Positions 3,328 to 56,828 of a DNA stretch of 64,000 nt are shown here, in pieces. The notes beneath the pieces were generated by a model. It was not told the origin of the DNA. It was given only the letters and a program-made list of their open reading frames with translations, and did not search any database. Every line of letters begins with the position of its first letter. Within the stretch, counting starts at the first letter, position 1. Position numbers and translations under genes: made by a program. Source of the stretch: Deltaproteobacteria bacterium (GTDB lineage Bacteria > Desulfobacterota > Syntrophobacteria > BM002); NCBI GenBank assembly GCA_022340745.1, contig JAJDNL010000239.1, positions 155 through 64,154 of the forward strand, given 5' to 3'.

Positions 3328-3896
3328 AAAATCTTTTCGCCGCCAAATGCTTAAAATACCGTCCCGCCCTGCCCTCTCCAAGTGGATTCCCCACCTGTAT
3401 CTGCAGCGCCAAGCCTCAGCCTAAGCGCTCTGCGCACCAGCAGGCTGCTGAAAAACTCAATATTTTGACTATGAGCATCAGGTCCGTCATTCCGGAAGGC
3501 GCGAAGTCCGCCTGCGGCGGAGAATCCAGTAAAAAAACAGCCCACTGGATACCGGATCTCGACTTCGTCTCGTCGGGTATGACGTTTGGGATTGTTTCCA
3601 GGATTTTTTAGCAGTCTGCAGGGAGCTTCAATATCGAATAAGGAATTTCGAACAGCAGAAGTTTCTAGAAAAAGTAAGACAATGTTTTTCACTTCGATAT
3701 TCTGCGGTTCATATTCTCGAAGACTGGATAGCTGATACTTGAGTGCTGACCGGGGAGACTGATCCGATTTTATGGCTCCTCCAGGGGCTGCCCAGAGCTG
3801 AGTTTTTGGAGCAGGATTTTTTACTCGCAACAAAGCGTTGGCTAAGGGAAGATAAGGGAATATCCCAAAACTTCCAAGGTGTGGTTACGCCTCCGG

Positions 3897-7594: not shown

Positions 7595-7680
7595 AGAAAT
7601 TGAGGGATTGAGGAGCACCGGTCTTTTTGAGAGAGTCTGGTGCAACGAGAGTAATGCAGTACTGCAAAATATAAGCTTCC

Positions 7681-7780
7681 AAGCACAAAATCTGAAGGTG
7701 TCGGGTGTCAGGTGTCAGGTGTCAGTGAGGAAAACAAAAAAACTGAAACCTGAACACTGAAACCTGAAACCTTCTCTACA
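7681..7780. repeat. heptamer-built hairpin element (family D): (GTGTCAG)3 arm / A-rich loop / (CTGAAAC)n arm
   Basis: AAGCACAAAATCTGAAGGTGTCGGGTGTCAGGTGTCAGGTGTCAG...AACTGAAACCTGAACACTGAAACCTGAAACC; arms are imperfect reverse complements. Ends 5 bp before the dxr GTG start. Confidence 0.7.
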
Positions 7781-15623: not shown

Positions 15624-16271
15624 ATGAGACGATTGCCCATTGCCAAGCAAGGCTCTCCATACATTATTGGCCTTGCGGTGCTGTTACTGCTGTTCGGTCT
15701 TTTGGGCTGGACTATTTTGACTGTTCTGACTTTCATCGTAACGCTTTTGGTGATAAACTTCTTCCGAGACCCTGAGAGAACCATACCGCAGGACCCCAAG
15801 GCGGTGTTGGCGCCGGCTGATGGACGAATCATCTTCGTCGGCAAAGTATTTGAAGATAGGTTTTTAAACAAAGAGACTTTGAAGATCAGCATCTTTATGT
15901 CAATCTTCAACGTCCACGTGAACCGCATACCTTTCTCCGGAGAGGTGGAAAGCGTTCATTACCAAAAGGGCACATTTTTTGCTGCTCATGTGGATAAGGC
16001 CTCTAGAGACAACGAACACAACGCAGTGATTTTGAGAATCTCTGGGGGTGAAAAAATAGTTTTTATCCAAATTGCCGGCTTGGTCGCTCGGCGAATCGAC
16101 TGCTGGGTGAAGCCGGGTGAGCGGGTTCAGCGGGGCGACCGTTTTGGTATGATTCGTTTCGGCTCCCGGCTGGACGTCTTCGTTCCCCTCGACAGCGAGC
16201 TGGCAGTGAACAAGGGGCAAGGTGTTAAGGCAGGAGAGACTATTTTATGTTACCACCAAAAAAACAAGTGA
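15624..16271 (+). CDS. psd: phosphatidylserine decarboxylase proenzyme (short, archaeal/anaerobe type)
   Basis: 215 aa. PSD family core with the GS-R self-cleavage region (RFGSRLDV). Overlaps pssA by 25 nt (coupled). Confidence 0.8.
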   Translation: MRRLPIAKQGSPYIIGLAVLLLLFGLLGWTILTVLTFIVTLLVINFFRDPERTIPQDPKAVLAPADGRIIFVGKVFEDRFLNKETLKISIFMSIFNVHVNRIPFSGEVESVHYQKGTFFAAHVDKASRDNEHNAVILRISGGEKIVFIQIAGLVARRIDCWVKPGERVQRGDRFGMIRFGSRLDVFVPLDSELAVNKGQGVKAGETILCYHQKNK

Positions 16272-17062
16272 AGCGGAAAAGCAATAAGCGGAAACAGAAG
16301 AAAAGAGGTATCTACTTACTCCCGAATCTTCTTACCACCGGCAACCTATTTTGCGGCTTTTATAGTATTGTTGCCACCATCAATCACGACTTCAGGACGG
16401 CAGCAATTGCGATTCTTTTTGCCTGTCTCTTCGATATTCTCGATGGCAAGGTGGCTCGTCTCACTGGCTCCAGCAGCCGCTTTGGGGTGGAGTATGATTC
16501 TCTGGCGGATCTGGTGGCTTTCGGTGTAGCACCTGCTCTGCTTGTGTACAGGTGGGCGCTTGAACCATTCGGCCGCCTGGGGTGGGGAGCGGCTTTCGTC
16601 TTTGTTGCCTGTGGTGCCCTGCGGCTGGCTCGTTTCAATACCCAGACTAATTCGACTCCCAAAAAGCATTTCGTGGGACTTCCCATTCCCGGAGCCGCCT
16701 TAATGGTAGCCACAACCGTGATGTTTTTTTACCGGATGGGAGGCAGTGGTCCCACAAAGCATTTCCTGTTGTTGGCCATGACCTACCTCTTGGGTTTTCT
16801 CATGGTCAGCAGCATCCCTTACAACAGCTTCAAAGAGTTTGATGGATTTCAGCGGATGCCGTTTCGGACACTGTTCTTGATAATCCTCCTCTTGTCGGTA
16901 ATCGCTGCCCAACCTTCCATCATGCTCTTTACTCTGGGCTTTGTCTATGTGAGTTCAGGCCCTTTGGGTTACACTCACGGTTTACTCCAAAGCCGCAGGC
17001 AATCCGTTGAGGGACAAACGGATAGCCAGGAGATGGTAAAGAGCAAAAACAGAACAAAATAG
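16247..17062 (+). CDS. pssA: CDP-diacylglycerol--serine O-phosphatidyltransferase
   Basis: CDP-alcohol phosphatidyltransferase motif DILDGKVAR...G...D...D; multi-TM; psd-pssA pairing. Confidence 0.85.
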   Translation: MLPPKKQVKRKSNKRKQKKRGIYLLPNLLTTGNLFCGFYSIVATINHDFRTAAIAILFACLFDILDGKVARLTGSSSRFGVEYDSLADLVAFGVAPALLVYRWALEPFGRLGWGAAFVFVACGALRLARFNTQTNSTPKKHFVGLPIPGAALMVATTVMFFYRMGGSGPTKHFLLLAMTYLLGFLMVSSIPYNSFKEFDGFQRMPFRTLFLIILLLSVIAAQPSIMLFTLGFVYVSSGPLGYTHGLLQSRRQSVEGQTDSQEMVKSKNRTK

Positions 17063-17163
17063 AGGCTACTCCCACCATACGAGGCAAATGACGAAAATGA
17101 ACCTGAGTGCCTGAAGCCTTGTAACAGACCATTACCACTTCGTCAGTCAAGACTTACAGGGTC

Positions 17164-17336
17164 TAGCCCGGATATTTCATGAAATATCCGGGCTCAATCT
17201 ATTCCCCTCCCAGGTAGTATCCAGGAAGGGGAAATTTTTCTTTACAGTGGGGTCAACTGCTTGGTGGTGTCACCACTTGCGGCTGACACCACCGTGATGA
17301 ATGTTAGCCCGGATATTTCATGAAATATCCGGGCTA
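17164..17336. mobile_element. MITE-A compound copy: two minimal 31-bp perfect palindromes flanking a 110-bp hairpin-rich core
   Basis: TAGCCCGGATATTTCATGAAATATCCGGGCT occurs at 17164-17194 and again at 17305-17336. The segment between them contains a 10-bp stem (GGTGGTGTCA...TGACACCACC). Lies 9 bp upstream of the leuC start. Confidence 0.7.
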
Positions 17337-17344
17337 GATGACCA

Positions 17345-18622
17345 GTGACAAAGGTAGCTACTATGAGAATGACGATTACCGAGAAAATTCTTGCGGCCCA
17401 CGCCGGATTGGACAGAGTAGTACCGGGAGAACTCATCGAAGTCAGTGTTGACTTCTCCCTCGCCAATGATATTACCGCGCCCATTGCCATTGAGCAGTTC
17501 CGCCAGGCGGGTGCTGAAAAGCTCTATGACGTGGCGAGGGTTGCTCTTGTCCCCGACCATTTTGTACCCAACAAGGACATTGAATCTGCCGCCCAGTGCC
17601 AGCTTTTGCGTGAGTTTGCCGCCGAGCATGAATTACCCCATTTTTTTGAGGTGGGTCGCATGGGCATCGAACATGCACTCCTGCCTGAACAGGGACTGGT
17701 CCTCCCCGGAGATGTGGTAGTGGGAGCCGACAGCCACACGTGTACCTACGGGGGACTCGGAGCCTTTGCCACCGGCGTTGGCAGTACGGATCTTGCTGCG
17801 GTTATGATAACCGGCCGGACCTGGTTCCGCGTGCCGGCCTCCATCAAATTTATCTTCCAGGGGGATCTTCGTCCCTGGGTTACCGGCAAGGATCTGATTC
17901 TTTATACCATTGGCCAGATTGGCGTTGATGGTGCCCGTTACCGGGCCATGGAGTTCACCGGCCCTGTCATTGCTCAACTCTCCATGGATCAACGGTTGAC
18001 CATGGCCAACATGGCCATTGAAGCAGGGGCAAAAAACGGCATCATCGCACCTGACGAGTGCACCCGGGCGTTTGTGGAGGAAAGGGCCCAGCGGCCCTAC
18101 CAATTTTACCAAAGCGACGCTGATGCTGAGTATGAGCAGGTCATTACCTACAATGTTAGTGAGATCGAACCACAAGTGGCCCTGCCACCTTCCCCAGCGA
18201 ACAGCCAACCGGTTTCATCCTTGGATGAGATTCCCATTGACCAGGTAGTGATCGGCTCCTGTACCAATGGCCGCATTGAGGATTTGAGATTGGCTGCCCA
18301 GTTGCTGAAAAGCCGCAAGGTGGCACCTAGGGTACGCTGCCTCATCATTCCTGCCACCCAGGCCATTTACCGACAGGCCATGGATGAGGGTCTGTTCACA
18401 ATTTTTCTCAAGGCGGAGGCTGCTATAAGCACCCCGACCTGTGGTCCCTGCCTGGGTGGTTACATGGGCATTCTCGCTGCTGGGGAGAGGGCTGTGGCCA
18501 CCACCAACAGGAATTTCGTGGGGCGAATGGGTCATCCGGAAAGTGAAGTCTATCTGGCCTCTCCTGCCGTGGCAGCAGCCTCGGCCGTGCTGGGCCGCAT
18601 CGCCAGCCCAGAGGAACTGTGA
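17345..18622 (+). CDS. leuC: 3-isopropylmalate dehydratase large subunit (archaeal-type, about 420 aa)
   Basis: Aconitase-family catalytic domain with a Cys ligand triad (SHTC...CTNG...CGPC); followed by leuD and leuB. Confidence 0.9.
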   Translation: MTKVATMRMTITEKILAAHAGLDRVVPGELIEVSVDFSLANDITAPIAIEQFRQAGAEKLYDVARVALVPDHFVPNKDIESAAQCQLLREFAAEHELPHFFEVGRMGIEHALLPEQGLVLPGDVVVGADSHTCTYGGLGAFATGVGSTDLAAVMITGRTWFRVPASIKFIFQGDLRPWVTGKDLILYTIGQIGVDGARYRAMEFTGPVIAQLSMDQRLTMANMAIEAGAKNGIIAPDECTRAFVEERAQRPYQFYQSDADAEYEQVITYNVSEIEPQVALPPSPANSQPVSSLDEIPIDQVVIGSCTNGRIEDLRLAAQLLKSRKVAPRVRCLIIPATQAIYRQAMDEGLFTIFLKAEAAISTPTCGPCLGGYMGILAAGERAVATTNRNFVGRMGHPESEVYLASPAVAAASAVLGRIASPEEL

Positions 18623-18630
18623 AGATTATT

Positions 18631-18930
18631 CACCACAAAGAACACGAAGGGCACAAAGGGGAATACAGAGCCTGTCCGATAACTGCTTTCCCCTCCCCTA
18701 GCGGGAGGGGATAACGGGGAGGGGGGGGGAATATTAACCCCCTGAAGTTTCATTGCTTTTTCACCCCCACCCTAATTCTCCCCCGTCGAGGGGGAGAGAA
18801 TTATGAGGTTGTCGGACACCCTTTACTGAGAGATTAGAAATCGCTATTAACTTGAACTCTGGTCGAGATAATTGCCCTATTTCAACTTTAGTCCTCAATA
18901 TTCTTTGTGTACTTTGTGACCTTTGTGGTC
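18631..18930. mobile_element. MITE-C-like insertion (about 300 bp) between leuC and leuD with imperfect 28-bp TIRs
   Basis: CACCACAAAGAACACGAAGGGCACAAAGG at the left versus CTTTGTGTACTTTGTGACCTTTGTGGTC at the right (reverse-complement related). Interior has two GC-rich palindromes and a G9 homopolymer at 18721-18729. A related terminus pair sits at 45585-45710 between porA and porD. Confidence 0.55.
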
Positions 18931-18968
18931 CAATCTTGATGTGATTGCAACCTAGGAGATGAAGATAC

Positions 18969-23210: not shown

Positions 23211-23711
23211 ATGAAAGACAAAAGAGTCACCGTCTATGCCGGATCTTTTGACCCTATCACCAACGGTCATCTGGACTTACTGGACCGAGCCCTCAAGATC
23301 TTCGACAACATCATCATCGCAGTTGCTGAAAATCCAGCAAAACAGCCGCTTTTTACTCTTGAAGAACGTCTTGACCTCATCCGCGCAAGTCTAAAGAACC
23401 ATCAAGAGCCCGAGCGTATTAGGGTGGACAGCTTTAAGGGACTGCTCGTGGACTACGTTGAGCGCTGCGGCGCTATGGCCATTCTCAGAGGACTGCGGGC
23501 CGTAAGCGACTTTGAGTATGAGTTTCAAATGGCCCTTATGAATCGAAAGCTAAGCCGCAAGCCGGAAACCCTGTACCTGATGACAGGGGCTCGCTGGATC
23601 TACATCTCATCCAGAATAATCAAGGAGGTAGTGCAGGCGGGGGGTGGTGTGACCGGCCTGGTGCCAGAGGCGGTAGAGAAAAAGTTGCGTGAAAAATTCG
23701 AGATTGACTAG
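23211..23711 (+). CDS. coaD: phosphopantetheine adenylyltransferase
   Basis: 166 aa; YAGSFDPITNGHLDL nucleotidyltransferase motif. Its TAG stop at 23709-23711 is the first three bases of a MITE-A terminal repeat. Confidence 0.95.
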   Translation: MKDKRVTVYAGSFDPITNGHLDLLDRALKIFDNIIIAVAENPAKQPLFTLEERLDLIRASLKNHQEPERIRVDSFKGLLVDYVERCGAMAILRGLRAVSDFEYEFQMALMNRKLSRKPETLYLMTGARWIYISSRIIKEVVQAGGGVTGLVPEAVEKKLREKFEID

Positions 23712-29891: not shown

Positions 29892-30129
29892 AACCAACTC
29901 TCCTCGTGCTTCTCTTTGTCATTGGAAAATGAGTCTATGATTACTTTCTTATTTAGCTCCAGTCCAGGGTAATAGATTCTGAAGAGAACCTATGAATCAA
30001 GGGAAGAGCGGTAGGATTTCGGCCTGCTACCATAGTACACACTGGCGTAAATCTCAAGCACCAAATCTGAGGGTGTCAGGTGTCAGGGAAGCAAGAAAGC
30101 CAACCGCTGAACACTTAAACCTCAATTAT

Positions 30130-30675: not shown

Positions 30676-30805
30676 ACAAAAGCCCGCAATCTTCACCTAC
30701 AACCCTGCCACGGGCGGGAGTCACCTGGTCTCCGGTGCACAATGATTTGCTTTTTTCTTGACTTGCCGCTACTATCTGACGGTCATCAACGAAAAGGGAG
30801 TAAGT

Positions 30806-31306
30806 ATGGCGAGGCTAGGGACTGTGCAAAAAAAAATATCTTTGTTTACCATGATCGTGACGATGTCCATTACTTTTTCTTTCCTTTCCGCCGCAAATGT
30901 TAGAGGCGGCAATCTCATGGATCTCACGTTGGTGGATGTGGATGGGAAGAAGGTGAGTCTCGATCAGGTGGCTGGGGACCAACTGCTCCTGCTTTATTTT
31001 TGGGCTACCTGGTGTAAGCCCTGTCGAAAAGCACAACCCAAGGTTGCCGCACTTGCCGAAAAATATAAGGACATGGTTAAGGTGGTGGGAATTAATGTGG
31101 GAGAATTGGATTCGCCAAAAGATATAAAAAAATATATTTCCCGTCAAAAGATCACCTACACCATGTTAATTGACCACAACGATGAGGCAGTGAAAAAGTT
31201 CTCCGTTGCTGCCATCCCAGTGATTATCCTTTTGGATGAAACCGGTAAAATCTTGTTCCGCGATCATGAGCCGCCGGCAAATCTGGATAAGTTCTTCTCT
31301 GAATAG
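30806..31306 (+). CDS. TlpA/ResA-like thiol-disulfide oxidoreductase (thioredoxin fold), exported
   Basis: WCKPC active site inside LLLYFWATWCKPCRK; N-terminal signal/anchor; RBS AAGGGAG upstream. Its TAG stop is the first three bases of a solo MITE-A terminus. Confidence 0.7.
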   Translation: MARLGTVQKKISLFTMIVTMSITFSFLSAANVRGGNLMDLTLVDVDGKKVSLDQVAGDQLLLLYFWATWCKPCRKAQPKVAALAEKYKDMVKVVGINVGELDSPKDIKKYISRQKITYTMLIDHNDEAVKKFSVAAIPVIILLDETGKILFRDHEPPANLDKFFSE

Positions 31307-31689: not shown

Positions 31690-31873
31690 TAGCCCGGATA
31701 TTTCATGAATGACTTGCTGCGACCACGGATATGCACGTCCTTCCTGGCGTCCTCGGATGTCGGCCCCTGCAACGTACGGTACAGGTACGCCTCGGAACCG
31801 ACACCCTGCGGTTGCCAGGTTGCACGCCCATCTTCGTGGTCTCGCGACAGCAATTCATGAAATATCCGGGCTA
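31690..31873. mobile_element. MITE-A copy (184 bp), terminal inverted repeats TAGCCCGGATATTTCATGAA
   Basis: Perfect 20-bp TIRs; internal nested inverted repeat (TTGCTGCGACCACGG...CTCGCGACAGCAA). Core shares GTACGTCGCA...CGACACCCGAGGACGCC...ATATCCGCGGTCGCAG blocks with the other copies. Confidence 0.75.
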
Positions 31874-32646
31874 GGTTTCAAGGCGGTGACCAGCATACGT
31901 TTGTTGAGAAGACCGTAATCGTCGGCCTTTGGGTGAGAAACCAGAAGACCACCACAGTCGATTTGCTGGAAGCCGCTTTCAGTGAGGAGCGCTTCCATAT
32001 CTTGGGGCTGGAAAAGCCGGGCAAAGTAGCGAACATCTCGGATAAGACCACGTTCTTTACTCAAAACAATTTCCCTCACCAAAACCCCTTCGTCTTGTAG
32101 TTGACGTTCCCGACATACCACCACATCTTCATTGGCCTCGTGCCAACTGCTGGGCTTGAATTGCCGGCGCGCGTAGTCGCTGTGGATTAAGTCAAGGAGC
32201 ACCCTACCGCCTGGTTTCAACAAGCGGCGGATCTCTCGAAGTATCTCCTGGTTCTGGCTGTCTTCTTTGAAGTAACCAAAGGAATTTCCCATAACCAATA
32301 CCACGTCAAAGCTTTCGTCCGCCAACCCTACCCTACAGGCATCACCGCGACAGAAATGTATCGAGGAGTCGATTTTCGTGGCAGCGTGAGAACCCACTTC
32401 TAACAATACCTGCGAGTAGTCAACCACCATCACATTTCTGTAGCCGCGCCTGGTCAACTCGATGGCATGTCGCCCTTGACCGCCACAAAGGTCGAGAATG
32501 AGATCGTCAGTCCTGAGGCTGAGAGTGGCCTCAACCATGTCGACCTCGGTAGCTGTTACTTCCGGGCAACACACACTACGAGCGTCAGTTACAAGATACG
32601 TCTCGTCAAAAATATGTTGCCACCAAGTGGGATCATATTCATCCAT
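31855..32646 (-). CDS. class I SAM-dependent methyltransferase
   Basis: Motif I VLDLCGGQGRHAIEL and motif post-I/II (LKPGGRVLLD). Confidence 0.75.
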   Translation of the reverse strand: MDEYDPTWWQHIFDETYLVTDARSVCCPEVTATEVDMVEATLSLRTDDLILDLCGGQGRHAIELTRRGYRNVMVVDYSQVLLEVGSHAATKIDSSIHFCRGDACRVGLADESFDVVLVMGNSFGYFKEDSQNQEILREIRRLLKPGGRVLLDLIHSDYARRQFKPSSWHEANEDVVVCRERQLQDEGVLVREIVLSKERGLIRDVRYFARLFQPQDMEALLTESGFQQIDCGGLLVSHPKADDYGLLNKRMLVTALKPSPDIS

Positions 32647-34312: not shown

Positions 34313-34339
34313 AGATACCTCCCTCGTTCGTGTCCACCC

Positions 34340-34424
34340 GAATGTCGGGTGTCAGGTGTCAGGTGTCAGGGAAGAAAAACAAAACAACTGAAACCTGAAC
34401 ACTGAAACCTGAAACCTCTTCTAC
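34340..34424. repeat. family D heptamer hairpin element copy
   Basis: GTCGGGTGTCAGGTGTCAGGTGTCAGGGAAGAAAAACAAAACAACTGAAACCTGAACACTGAAACCTGAAACC; immediately upstream (5' side) of the ATP-grasp gene on the other strand. Confidence 0.7.
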
Positions 34425-36188: not shown

Positions 36189-36420
36189 TCGTGCTATTTT
36201 ATTGAGGTTATGAATTCCGAAATGAGAAACACGAAGCACGAAACAAATTCAAAATTCAAATTTTCCAATATTCAAAACAATTTCTTTCCGGAAAGCAATT
36301 ACCATTTTGGCCATTTGGATTTCGAAAATTTGAAAATTGTTTCGGATTTCGATATTCGGATTTCGGAGTTTGAAACTATCGCTGCGGATCTGGGACACCT
36401 TCTGGTTACCAGCGATCATT

Positions 36421-37515: not shown

Positions 37516-37707
37516 CTAGAGCCGCTCCAAAGTGTTTTATTTGTTCATCTTATATCATAATAACAAGGAATTGTATAGTGAAAGTGGTCACTCCCCTGTA
37601 CTCATCAGCCATGCGATAGCCTGCTGGAGTAATGGAGTGGCGAAGCATTGCAGAATATCAAATTGGTCCTTCGGACACCCCACCCTGCGGGCGGGTCCCC
37701 GGTTTCC

Positions 37708-37786
37708 AAGCACAAAATCTCTGGGTATCAGGTGTCGGGTGTCAGGGAAGAAAAACAAAACAACTGAAACCTGAAACCTCCTCTAC
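37708..37786. repeat. family D heptamer hairpin element copy
   Basis: AAGCACAAAATCTCTGGGTATCAGGTGTCGGGTGTCAGGGAAGAAAAACAAAACAACTGAAACCTGAAACC. Confidence 0.7.
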
Positions 37787-39730: not shown

Positions 39731-40158
39731 TAGATAACCCCCACCATCAAGTGAGGCTACGCTAGTTCTATTGAAGCTCCCTGCAGTCCGCCTTCGGCGG
39801 ACTACGGGGAATGCGCTCGCTAGAGCATTTTCAACGCAGAAAATCTGGCGCTTGGGGCCAGTCTTTTTTGATTTATGATTGCAGATTGAAGTGTATACAT
39901 TTTATATTTAAAAGTTGTGAGTTCTTAAATCTAAAATCTGCATTCTAAAATCTAAAATCCCACAGGCAGTCCTAAGCCGGGTCCTTTGGGCCCGGATTCT
40001 TTATTCTCTACCCTCATGCACATGGAATTCTTTGACTTTTTCACTTGATTTTTCCCAAAGCCATGTATTAAATTCGCCTTGATAATCGCCGGTTTCTCAA
40101 AGTGGGTCGATTTCGCTTCAAAGGATTGCTTCCTTGGCCAAAGCGGCGACCTAAAGTC

Positions 40159-40422
40159 TAGCCCGGATTTTTCATGAATTGCTGTCGCGAGACCGAGAGA
40201 CTGGGAACCCGCTTGCGGGACTGAGCGGAGCGCAGCGAGCGCGAAGAGGATGGGTGTACCACCGGGAAACCGCAGGGGGTTGGATCTGAGGTGTACTTGA
40301 ACAGTACGTCGCAAGATCCGACACCCGAGGACGCCCGGCTTCCGGCTCGGAGAGCCTACAGCTCGGAGAGAAGGACAGTCATATCCGCGGTCGCAGCAGG
40401 CAACTCGTGAAATATCCGGGCC
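40159..40422. mobile_element. MITE-A copy (264 bp)
   Basis: TAGCCCGGATTTTTCATGAA ... TCGTGAAATATCCGGGCC termini; core blocks GTACGTCGCAAGATCCGACACCCGAGGACGCCC and ATATCCGCGGTCGCAG shared with the 47315 and 56645 copies. Confidence 0.7.
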
Positions 40423-40462
40423 GAAACGTTATGGGTTAATCTTGAAAAAGGAGGTCAGCGTT

Positions 40463-46919: not shown

Positions 46920-47333
46920 ATGTCTGAAAGACTGATAGAGAAAATCGCCCTGCCAAACGGTTTGATTCTAGAAATCTGGGACACATCTCACCTCATGGCG
47001 GGCGACAGATGGTTGGTCTCGCTTCTCGCCAAGGTGGAAGTCACTGTCTTGCCCGAGTACTTCTCTCCACTTGACGATGGCGAACAGGCTTACCAAGATC
47101 TGGTCGCCGCCCATGGCAACTCTCTGGTTTTTACCCAGGAAAAAGTGAGACTTTTCGTGGATAAAGGCGAAACCAAAGAGGTGCTCACCAGACTGCGCCG
47201 GAGCATCAAGGACAATCTGGCAGCATATCTCGGCAACCCCAAATTTGCCTCGTCTTACGTACTGAAAAAATATGGCGACCTCCGAGATCGCCAGAATTGG
47301 GGCGCCGCCCCCCCTAGCCCGGATGTTTCATGA
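46920..47333 (+). CDS. hypothetical protein, 3' end defined by MITE-A insertion
   Basis: ORF with no family recognised. Its last codons and its TGA stop lie inside the MITE-A left terminus (…GCC CCC CCT AGC CCG GAT GTT TCA TGA). Confidence 0.35.
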   Translation: MSERLIEKIALPNGLILEIWDTSHLMAGDRWLVSLLAKVEVTVLPEYFSPLDDGEQAYQDLVAAHGNSLVFTQEKVRLFVDKGETKEVLTRLRRSIKDNLAAYLGNPKFASSYVLKKYGDLRDRQNWGAAPPSPDVS

Positions 47334-47550
47334 AAATGCTATAGCGAGCGCGTCCTCCGTAGCGACTCGACCTGAGCGACACGACCTGAGCTCGTCGACA
47401 GGTCTCGTCGACAAGTCTTGCTGCGGGGTTAGCGAGCGAATTACAATAAAACGGTACGTCGCAAAGTGCGACACCCGAGGACGCCCAGAAGGACGCCTAT
47501 ATCCGCGGTCGCAGTCCGCCGTAGGCGGAATTCATGAAACATCCGGGCTA
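47315..47550. mobile_element. MITE-A copy (236 bp)
   Basis: TAGCCCGGATGTTTCATGAA ... TTCATGAAACATCCGGGCTA termini; same core blocks. The left TIR supplies the last codons and TGA stop of the upstream ORF 46920-47333. Confidence 0.75.
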
Positions 47551-47824: not shown

Positions 47825-48211
47825 CCACTGTTCACCTCTCTTTCACCATAAAAAAAGCCCTTTTCACAGGGCCCAGCCGCAACTTTCTTTGGCATGAATC
47901 GTTGTAAGGAACTGAACCTCTTCATGGTCTCAGAAGTTATCTACCAAAGCAATCGTGCTGCTGCAGTCCCCTATCAACTTTTTATCTAACATATCCTCTT
48001 GGCAGTGGCAACCCCGCACCCCTCAGGAGTTACTCCATTCCTTTGCTCACTTGGCAGATGATAGGTTGAACCGCAGAATATCGAAGTGAAAAACATTGTC
48101 TTATTTCTTTCAAAAACTTCTGCCGTTCGAAATTCCTCGTTCGATATTCACAAACGACTATTTACTTCACTCCGTATTATAGCGACCCAAGGAAGGCTGA
48201 TTGAATATCTA

Positions 48212-48440
48212 CCACAGAGGCACAGAGATCACGGAGGAGGTTGTTTTTTCCCTGGCCGGGAGACGACGGCCAGGGAAAAGAGCCTCCGCCTTCGGCGAAA
48301 GCTCCTTAACTGGTTCCAACCGATGACATCAAACCACCGGGTTACTTGATCGTGCCCGCAGGGCTGCGATCTTTTGCCCGATCGCCGTCTCCCGATCGGG
48401 CAAAAAAAATATTCCCTCTGTGCTCTCCGTGTCTCTGTGG
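48212..48440. mobile_element. MITE-B copy 1 (229 bp), TIR CCACAGAGGCACAGAG
   Basis: Termini CCACAGAGGCACAGAG...CTCTGTGCTCTCCGTGTCTCTGTGG. Internal hairpins (CCCTGGCCGGGAGACGACGGCCAGGG; TTTTGCCCGATCGCCGTCTCCCGATCGGGCAAAA). About 90 percent identical to the reverse complement of copy 2. Confidence 0.75.
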
Positions 48441-48561
48441 TTAGTAAATAAAAGTGGATATCGAAATCTAGTATTGATAGCATGCGCAGCTGAGGGAATA
48501 GGCGTTATTCAAAATTGAAAACAGGCTGAATCCCGCTTTAATCATAACTGAAAGTGCGGCA

Positions 48562-49353: not shown

Positions 49354-49880
49354 GTTACACCTCTCCTTTGTTAATCTAAGATCCATTCCAATAGCTTTAA
49401 CGATTGAGTCCATAAGAATTGAAATTTTCCTCCATGTCAAGAAAAAGCCGGCTGCAAAGATTTACCCGTTTTTTATCCGGTAAAAAATGGGTAAATCTTT
49501 GCAAAAGTAATACGGCCAAGAATCGCAACGAATACAGACCAGGACATGGGCTTTTCGGTTGATTGACTGGGCCTTGCCCCTATGCTAGTAAAAGAGGCCA
49601 CATCATACTGGCCTGTAACTAATTTAATGCCAGAAGTTCGAAACTAGTGGTTATCTAACAGTCGTTCTTGGATGAATGGAGTAAGTGTCATTTATGATTT
49701 AAGATTGCTGATTGCAGATTGAGACTAAACAGTGCTTATGACTTCGATGCGCAAAGCTCTTCAATCTAAAATCTGCATTCTAAAATCAAAAATCGCTAGT
49801 ACTCCAGCCCATCCTCCGAAGGCGCAACCGGCGACCTCCTATCACTTGGTTGCTTCTTAACCAGTTTGAGGGCTCGATAC

Positions 49881-51759: not shown

Positions 51760-51864
51760 ACAGCATGGCTTACTCAAAGCTGAGAATCACTTTACCAAAA
51801 CGCCCATGCCATTAACTCCGCATACCATGGATACTAGATTTCGATATGCACTTTTATTTACTAA

Positions 51865-52094
51865 CCACAGAGACACGGAGAGCACAGAGGGAACCATTTC
51901 TCTTGCCCGATCGGGAGACGGCGATCGGGCAAGAGATCGCAGCCCTGCGGGCACGATCTAGTAACCGGGTGGTTCATGCCTACGGTTGGATCTAGGCTAA
52001 AGAGCTTTCGCCGCAGGCGGAGGCTCTTTTCCCTGGCCGTCGTCTCCCGGCCAGGGAAAAAACAACATCCTCCGTGTCCTCTGTGCCTCTGTGG
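51865..52094. mobile_element. MITE-B copy 2 (230 bp), inverted relative to copy 1
   Basis: CCACAGAGACACGGAGAGCACAGAG...CCTCTGTGCCTCTGTGG; same internal hairpins in reverse orientation. Confidence 0.75.
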
Positions 52095-52209
52095 TAAATT
52101 TTCACTCAGGCTTCATTAGGCCGCAACCACACGGAGCAGAGTAAATAGTCGTTTGCAAAATCCGATTAGCAGAAAAGATTCAAACATTAGGGGATTGGGG
52201 GAGCAAAAT

Positions 52210-56644: not shown

Positions 56645-56828
56645 CAGCTCGGATGTTTCACCAATTGGTGTCGCGAGACCGCAATGATGAGTGTGCCACC
56701 GGGCAACCACAGGGTGTCGGATCCGAGGCGTACTTGAACAGTACGTCGCAGGGTCCGACACCCGAGGACGCCCGGGAGGACGATCATATCTGCGGTCGCA
56801 GCAGGTGATTCGTGAAATATCCGGGCTA
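56645..56828. mobile_element. MITE-A copy (184 bp) with degenerate left terminus
   Basis: CAGCTCGGATGTTTCACCAA ... TTCGTGAAATATCCGGGCTA; core nearly identical to the 40159 copy (GTGTACTTGAACAGTACGTCGCA...GGTCCGACACCCGAGGACGCCCGG). Confidence 0.7.

Follow-up and report, generated by a model that had tools for sequence, protein, structure and literature searches.

Between pssA and leuC of an uncultured deltaproteobacterium, two identical palindromes enclose a hairpin, a T-run and a second stem, an arrangement that raises the question of whether a mobile element has brought a control region to this junction of an amino acid biosynthesis operon or has settled around one that was already there. 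The earlier note on this DNA, made from the letters of the window (the whole 64-kb stretch analysed here), had read the arrangement as a single mobile structure. The reading developed below is that positions 17164-17336 are the native pssA-leuC spacer of a Syntrophobacteria-like organism together with two independent 30-bp insertions; taken jointly with the passenger role of the palindromes and the leaky-terminator role of the hairpin that are argued in later sections, we give it a probability of about 0.8.

Layout of the pssA-leuC junction

Profile searches placed ilvB, ilvN, ilvC, psd and pssA ahead of leuC, leuD, leuB and asd, in agreement with the names that the flanking genes had been given earlier, with pssA closing the ilvB-ilvN-ilvC-psd-pssA block (Table 1). 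Homologues of the window PssA carry the labels of Syntrophobacteria or Deltaproteobacteria MAGs. Within the spacer, the 31-nt sequence TAGCCCGGATATTTCATGAAATATCCGGGCT occurs twice in identical form (17164-17194 and 17305-17335; 0 copies in 100 shuffles), and the 110 bp between these units (17195-17304) hold the GC-rich hairpin, the T-run and the second 10-bp stem exactly as first described. When only strictly perfect pairing is counted, the palindrome of copy 1 runs from 17165 to 17194 (30 bp) and that of copy 2 from 17305 to 17336 (32 bp), whilst the two copies considered as a pair form 33-nt inverted-repeat arms (17162-17194 and 17306-17338) with 111 nt between them. The second stem is shorter in relatives, where the spacer alignment reads GTGTC/GACAC.

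Table 1. Features of the pssA-leuC junction and the full-length element used as reference (positions in the window)
Feature	Position	Strand	Details
pssA, CDP-diacylglycerol--serine O-phosphatidyltransferase	16247..17062	+	NCBIfam TIGR00473, E 3e-43
Palindrome 1, putative 28-bp collapsed MITE	17164..17195	.	28-mer 17166-17193 = GCCCGGATATTTCATGAAATATCCGGGC; flanked by TA (left) and TC (right)
Native hairpin and tail	17202..17243	+	Hairpin 17202-17233 (TTCCCCT.../...AGGGGAA), then A-TTTTT-C-TTT at 17234-17243
Second native stem-loop	17263..17293	+	10-bp stem GGTGGTGTCA/TGACACCACC at 17263-17272/17284-17293; -21.3 kcal/mol
Palindrome 2, identical putative 28-bp collapsed MITE	17305..17336	.	28-mer 17307-17334; TA on either side
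Shine-Dalgarno-like AAAGG of leuC	17350..17354	+	Within block ATGACCAGTGACAAAGGTAGCTAC, kept in all close relatives
leuC, 3-isopropylmalate dehydratase large subunit (likely start)	17363..18622	+	TIGR02083, E 2.8e-208; open frame from GTG 17345
Reference full-length MITE of the same family	31690..31873	.	184 bp including TA flanks; terminal inverted repeat reference

The structure had been placed 9 bp upstream of leuC, a distance that counts from GTG 17345, which is merely the first start codon of the frame. Because residue 9 of this frame is where the match to the LeuC profile starts, ATGGGAATGACG is kept in relatives, the gene of one relative (L001) is called from that ATG with a 419-aa product and the AAAGG motif stands in front of it, ATG 17363 is the likely start of leuC, 26 nt beyond the second palindrome.

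The palindromes and their MITE family

Copies of the half-site CCCGGATATTTCA number 15 in the window against 1.6 expected. Besides the reference element, full-length family members are found at 40159-40423, 47315-47550 and 56645-56828, and solo left ends at 23709, 31304 and 46817. The four full-length elements are 184-265 bp long and have ends from CCCGGATATTTCA around interiors that are unrelated or mosaic. An 18-20-nt end sequence, GCCCGGATATTTCATGAA, is shared by both ends of the four elements, the three solo ends and both palindromes, and the assignment of the palindromes to a family first called 'MITE-A' holds, the same ends being present at other elements of the window.

The inner 8 bases of the 18-bp terminal inverted repeat GCCCGGATATTTCATGAA are the self-complementary TTCATGAA, and this octamer or a one-mismatch variant of it lies at the inner edge of both repeats in all full elements. 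Because the left and right repeats, overlapped on TTCATGAA, give exactly the 28-bp palindrome, each palindrome is a family MITE without interior. Its two 18-bp terminal inverted repeats are fused through TTCATGAA, the smallest derivative that this family, which is common in the window, could give. Full copies of 184-472 bp contain no long ORFs, and the 28-bp palindromes are likewise non-coding.

Native core and order of insertion

Relatives were collected by a metagenome scan with PssA, which yielded 80 loci, and two more came from exact-protein look-ups. Six of these relatives (L002 and L037-L041, PssA 89-90% identical) have the full 110-bp core, including hairpin, T-run and second stem, and neither palindrome; two others (L035 and L036, PssA 98% identical) carry palindrome 1, altered by one G>A change, in the same place and lack palindrome 2. 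The alignment gaps at the palindrome sites span 31 columns at site 1 and 30 columns at site 2, the latter in L035, L036 and all 89-90% relatives, which fits 28 bp plus a duplicated TA. Since the core stands without palindromes in the 89-90% relatives, it represents the native spacer, and the palindromes are separate insertions. The comparison shows palindrome 1 to be the older of the two, inserted before the split from the 98% relatives, and palindrome 2 to be the younger and specific to the lineage of the window. One of the contigs compared, L002, ends in an artefact: at 3431-3453, the 3' end of this Logan contig carries the adapter-like AGATCGGAAGAGCACACGTCTGA in mid-spacer, presumably Illumina adapter sequence.

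These configurations speak against the earlier proposal of one compound MITE, according to which 17164-17336 would be a single mobile unit with long palindromic ends carrying a terminator and leader cassette. It is true that the outer ends qualify formally as an inverted-repeat pair with TA flanks, and the whole segment has a very stable fold (z = -8.85), but the relatives carry the core by itself (six) or with palindrome 1 only (two), the core is unlike the interiors of other family members, and it is confined to the orthologous junction, the core motif having a single copy in the window and turning up in none of the 116 fetched loci outside orthologous pssA-leuC junctions. The segment 17164-17336 was seen neither to come and go as a whole unit nor to repeat elsewhere, and a compound element is very improbable. 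The companion idea of a hijacked terminator delivered by mobile DNA falls on the same comparison: as the core, hairpin included, is native and sits in the palindrome-free 89-90% relatives, the terminator was neither brought in nor hijacked by a mobile element.

The repeats might also serve as a recombination switch, since each copy is its own reverse complement and could act as a direct and an inverted repeat, so that recombination would delete or invert the terminator-bearing core; on inversion, as read from the sequence, the hairpin would lose its U-run. Only this geometry argues for such a switch, whereas the homology amounts to just 31 bp, relatives have at most one copy, and neither the alternative orientation nor the deletion was present in any fetched locus, which makes a switch extremely improbable. 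Two separate insertions into a native spacer therefore remain our reading of the junction.

The spacer has received other members of the family in other lineages. In L044 (2848-3775, PssA 84% identical), it reaches 1078 bp, and two full-length family MITEs of 472 and 361 bp, at TA sites other than those used in the window, bracket the conserved hairpin. In L042, a MITE end fragment, GCGGATATTTCATGA (2780-2801), takes the place of the final nine codons of pssA and provides its stop codon, PssA ending there in ...TDSQEADIS as against ...TDSQEMVKSKNRTK (translation by eye).

Target sites, distribution and assignment of the family

The second MITE of L044 (...ctgc TA, 361 bp, TA gtgtcgc...) set against the empty site of L037 (...cttgt TA gtgtcgc...) is a clean TA target duplication for the family. 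Filled and empty sites of the window differ at 2-3 flanking bases and are compatible with TA duplication, though no proof of it on their own. Further sites came from a 28-mer scan of species-representative genomes, with a search pattern that favoured near-perfect palindromes, which returned 32 loci, 30 of them independent once two orthologous pairs were removed, so that the palindrome stands singly at about 30 unrelated sites in other genomes. A TA adjoined the 28-mer on the left at 21 and on the right at 20 of these 32 genome sites, with both sides so flanked at 15. The hosts were labelled as Desulfosudaceae, Syntrophobacteria, Nitrosomonas, Sulfuricella, Thiohalomonas, Rhodospirillales, SAR324 and Thermodesulfovibrionia, and the contigs bearing the 28-mer ranged from 44 to 68% GC.

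One further label is that of the L022 scaffold, binned as Shewanella sp. MAG-BB-1, which over about 400 bp of palindrome flank is 95% identical to L032, the chromosome of Deltaproteobacteria bin435 (CP070843.1); because of this match, the scaffold was probably mis-binned in the public record, and labels that cross phyla are to be read with caution. In two Desulfosudaceae MAGs (L003 913-1441 and L015 4988-5518), a small Cys-rich gene, which we take to resemble desulfoferrodoxin, lies between two 28-bp palindromes about 500 bp apart. The two pairs are orthologous with 92% identity, which shows that such palindromes, as far as these sequences go, can persist across species.

At the 32 genome loci, the 28-mer usually lay <60 nt from a gene end, often on the TA of a stop codon (TAG or TAA), and about 90% of bacterial MITEs are intergenic (PMC11602168). 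In the window, the frames 23211-23711 and 30758-31306 stop at a TAG that holds the flanking TA of a MITE, and the minus-strand frame 31855-32646 stops inside a MITE repeat; ORFs that end in MITE ends (23709, 31304 and 31855) fit a preference for TA within stop codons.

Tc1/mariner/IS630 elements integrate solely at TA, which they duplicate (PMC2170065), and RUP provides a precedent for an IS630-dependent bacterial MITE (PMC2229807). On the strength of the TA duplication and the anatomy, the palindrome family would be a TA-duplicating MITE family of the IS630/Tc1-mariner type. No transposase gene bounded by family repeats was found in the window or in the searched plasmids and loci, and Pfam matches for ten window ORFs near repeats were to housekeeping genes only. 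When the palindrome was compared with plasmids by BLAST, nothing but solo ends came up, these on a Magnetococcus plasmid in which broken IS630 genes are also present. An IS630 remnant beside a palindrome in L024, located by tblastn with the Magnetococcus IS630 fragments, has its own, different ends.

Origin of the 28-bp form

A full MITE could give rise to the 28-bp form in place if the stretch between its two direct TTCATGAA repeats were deleted, and fold-back template switching at the TTCATGAA centre could have the same outcome; we infer that either route is more likely than transposition of the 28-bp unit itself. The window holds only two collapsed copies in 64 kb, 141 bp apart, for which a rough estimate gives a probability of a few per cent under independent placement in intergenic DNA, and this proximity hints at a local relationship that independent collapse leaves unexplained.

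Were the 28-bp unit itself transposable, copy 2 could be a local hop from copy 1, to which it is identical, close by and later in origin. Identical 28-mers with TA flanks at about 30 independent sites, on contigs across the GC range given above, point the same way, as does symmetry at one variable position in 31 of 32 copies, compared with about half of six full-length MITEs. The search pattern, however, selected near-perfect palindromes, and deletion between TTCATGAA repeats would leave the same product. Moreover, the 18-bp transposase sites overlap by 8 bp, and looping of a paired-end complex, to judge from Tc1/mariner mechanisms, should be impossible at 28 bp; a transposable unit is thus unlikely. 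An extension of the idea, in which the 28-bp fusion of terminal inverted repeats is a mobile 'nano-MITE' that makes local hops, spreads between very different bacteria and turns the native DNA flanked by it into a new mobilisable cassette, is quite unlikely. If it held, the terminator between the two units would be the birth of a MITE caught in the act, and a nano-MITE would lie far below the size range of MITE finders. In place of either, we prefer collapse in situ by deletion or template switching. A 28-bp fusion of this kind is smaller than the MITE sizes typically reported, and surveys may miss such units.

The native hairpin as a candidate terminator or attenuator

The terminator-like hairpin that the earlier note placed between pssA and leuC is present as hairpin and T-run at 17202-17243. 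The hairpin itself (17202-17233) has a folding energy of -16.3 kcal/mol and is followed by A-UUUUU-C-UUU on the transcribed strand, which is the anatomy of an intrinsic terminator, and a simple consensus terminator scan did not list it. Conservation, judged from per-sequence folds, extends to 14 relatives with 79-98% PssA identity, in which hairpin and T-run are kept whether MITEs are present or not; among the fetched relatives in this range, only L001 and L042 are without the hairpin, and a heptamer-repeat element stands in its place. Little or no variation is found in the stem base TTTCCCC/GGGGAAA and the T-run (L044 is slightly off, with GGGGATG before the T-run), and the inner stem varies yet pairs in all copies (for example, CCCC-T/A-GGGG vs CCCCC/GGGGG).

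The hairpin of L045 stops 6 nt short of the leuC ATG, leaving no room for a separate promoter, so read-through must occur there. Relatives with 53-60% PssA identity have pssA-leuC spacers of 3-24 bp, from which it follows that the cluster was ancestrally one operon. Its absence from L001 and L042 marks the hairpin as dispensable, at least in the sequences of those relatives, and this dispensability, the L045 spacing and the short distant spacers together suggest that termination is leaky. From anatomy and conservation, 17202-17243 would be a native Rho-independent terminator or attenuator that leaks. As the functional element of the spacer, this ancestral hairpin with its U-run would lower read-through from ilvBNC-psd-pssA into leuCDB-asd, setting the ratio of the transcripts.

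Of the other roles suggested earlier for this junction, that of a promoter for leuCDB-asd found no support, as a consensus scan returned no plus-strand promoter-like site in the spacer and site counts did not exceed those of shuffles. A lone minus-strand promoter-like site (17351 to 17324, TTGTCA-16-GATATT), which borrows GATATT from palindrome 2, was set aside, as the counts are not above shuffles. The suggestion of a regulated attenuator survives in part: a terminator-like hairpin is there, but neither a Leu-rich leader peptide nor an Rfam family accompanies it. The spacer contains no Leu-rich leader ORF, and the sole ORF before the hairpin, MTKMNLSA, has one Leu and an ATG that is not kept in relatives. 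When the spacer and the leuC-leuD region were scanned against Rfam, no match came up in 17063-17362 up to E = 5, and those outside the spacer were at chance level.

A group of more distant relatives (L050-L059, 66-74% PssA identity) has a different and well-conserved pssA-leuC spacer of 115-123 nt, running …GGTGAACGGACGCCCTCGGC…GGCCGAGATC…GTTTTGTCGTC…GAGGTTGATTGCACC, in which no Rfam match and little covariation were found; this spacer could be an undescribed leuC leader.

What the palindromes may do

As read from the sequence, neither palindrome has a T-run after it, and so neither is a terminator. The palindromes are probably selfish passengers, and, as they have no T-runs and no convincing promoter hexamers, any regulatory effect is probably minor and at most one on mRNA processing or stability. 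As RNA, each palindrome would form a hairpin of about -20 kcal/mol. When both are transcribed, they can pair in a 33-bp duplex that encloses the terminator, and the comparison of alternative RNA folds, which had been put forward as a check, came out for this long-range duplex as thermodynamically preferred over local hairpins (-131.5 kcal/mol vs -109.1 kcal/mol with the pairing span limited to 70 nt).

The favoured duplex lends some weight to the alternative that the palindromes, singly or paired, have been co-opted and now matter for expression. They might undergo RNase III-type processing like that of Correia/NEMIS elements, or form a hairpin that stabilises the 5' end 14 nt ahead of the ribosome-binding site of leuC; they might also sequester the terminator in the 33-bp duplex or serve as an operator for the transposase of the family. 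Palindrome 1, older than the split from the 98% relatives, has been kept, and in L044 the hairpin independently lies between two family members with facing ends able to pair, an arrangement for which selection, rather than a hot spot alone, could be responsible. MITE hairpins have, in addition, been reported as RNase III substrates in Neisseria (PMC2229807). Set against this, the palindromes are absent from most relatives, a stem-breaking change is already present in palindrome 1 of L035 and L036, local hairpins should form first during transcription, and insertion at gene boundaries is a general habit of the family. Co-option is accordingly unlikely, and we continue to regard the palindromes as passengers.

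Comparison with known systems

RUP elements of Streptococcus pneumoniae, which are IS630/Tc1-mariner MITEs, resemble the family described here in being short and non-coding, with terminal inverted repeats, TA duplication, a mostly intergenic location and many copies (PMC2229807, PMC2170065). They differ in length, at about 107 bp compared with palindromes of 28 bp that have no interior, and in their partner, since an IS630-family transposase with matching ends was not found in the sequences searched here. Correia/NEMIS elements of Neisseria are likewise gene-boundary MITEs that form RNA hairpins in co-transcribed spacers, and they have been proposed to affect neighbouring transcripts via RNase III (PMC2229807). 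Correia elements are, however, 105-155 bp long and have an IHF site and mapped promoters, none of which is seen in the 28-bp unit.

REP, BIME and REPIN elements, mobilised by RAYTs, share with the present palindromes a length of about 30 bp, a location in operon spacers, frequent pairing and the formation of mRNA hairpins. A REP is an imperfect palindrome bearing a conserved 5' GTAG head; it is not known to duplicate its target and is processed in single-stranded form by a Y1 transposase. The palindrome here, in contrast, is perfect and without a GTAG head, and its family is TA-duplicating, which sets it outside the REP definition. The native hairpin at 17202-17243, for its part, has in common with intrinsic terminators a GC-rich stem, an A/U-extended base, a U-run, a position 3' of a stop codon and conservation. 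Unlike usual terminators, it lies within an ancestral operon and abuts the leuC start in L045, and it is probably leaky.

Other repeats in the window

The leuC-leuD spacer (18623-18968, 346 bp) contains a different repeat element, with 27-nt inverted arms at 18632-18658 and 18903-18929 and G/C-rich inner hairpins. The same spacer in L036 holds unrelated heptamer repeats instead, and, as the contents of the two differ, several operon spacers must have been invaded independently. Inverted repeats of about 370 bp, 85-94% complementary, lie at 48151-48518 and 51787-52155, and others at 3630-3711 and 48067-48148. The genes between the pair of about 370 bp encode an enoyl-CoA hydratase, a beta-eliminating lyase and a SAM hydroxide adenosyltransferase, and no transposase was found between these two repeats. 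Intergenic DNA of the window is rich in short tandem repeats of the heptamer type (GGTGTCA, AAATCCG, AAATCTA and similar) and in other dispersed families, with examples at 7677-7755, 30052-30094, 34328-34399 and 37704-37775 and further sites at 965-989, 36220-36365, 39899-39959 and 49741-49794. Heptamer-type repeats also occupy the pssA-leuC spacer of L001 and L042.

Implications

Mobile DNA does sit at the pssA-leuC junction, as had been claimed, in the form of two MITE-family palindromes. The metagenomic series from none through one to two palindromes dates both insertions and, together with L044 and L042, shows that one MITE family has struck a single spacer of about 250 bp at least five times independently. 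What looked like an exotic regulatory cassette would be ordinary transposon debris around a native terminator-like hairpin, and the value of the result lies mainly in this correction. For the annotation of the ilv-psd-pssA / leuCDB-asd junction, the candidate control point would be the hairpin at 17202-17243 and not the palindromes.
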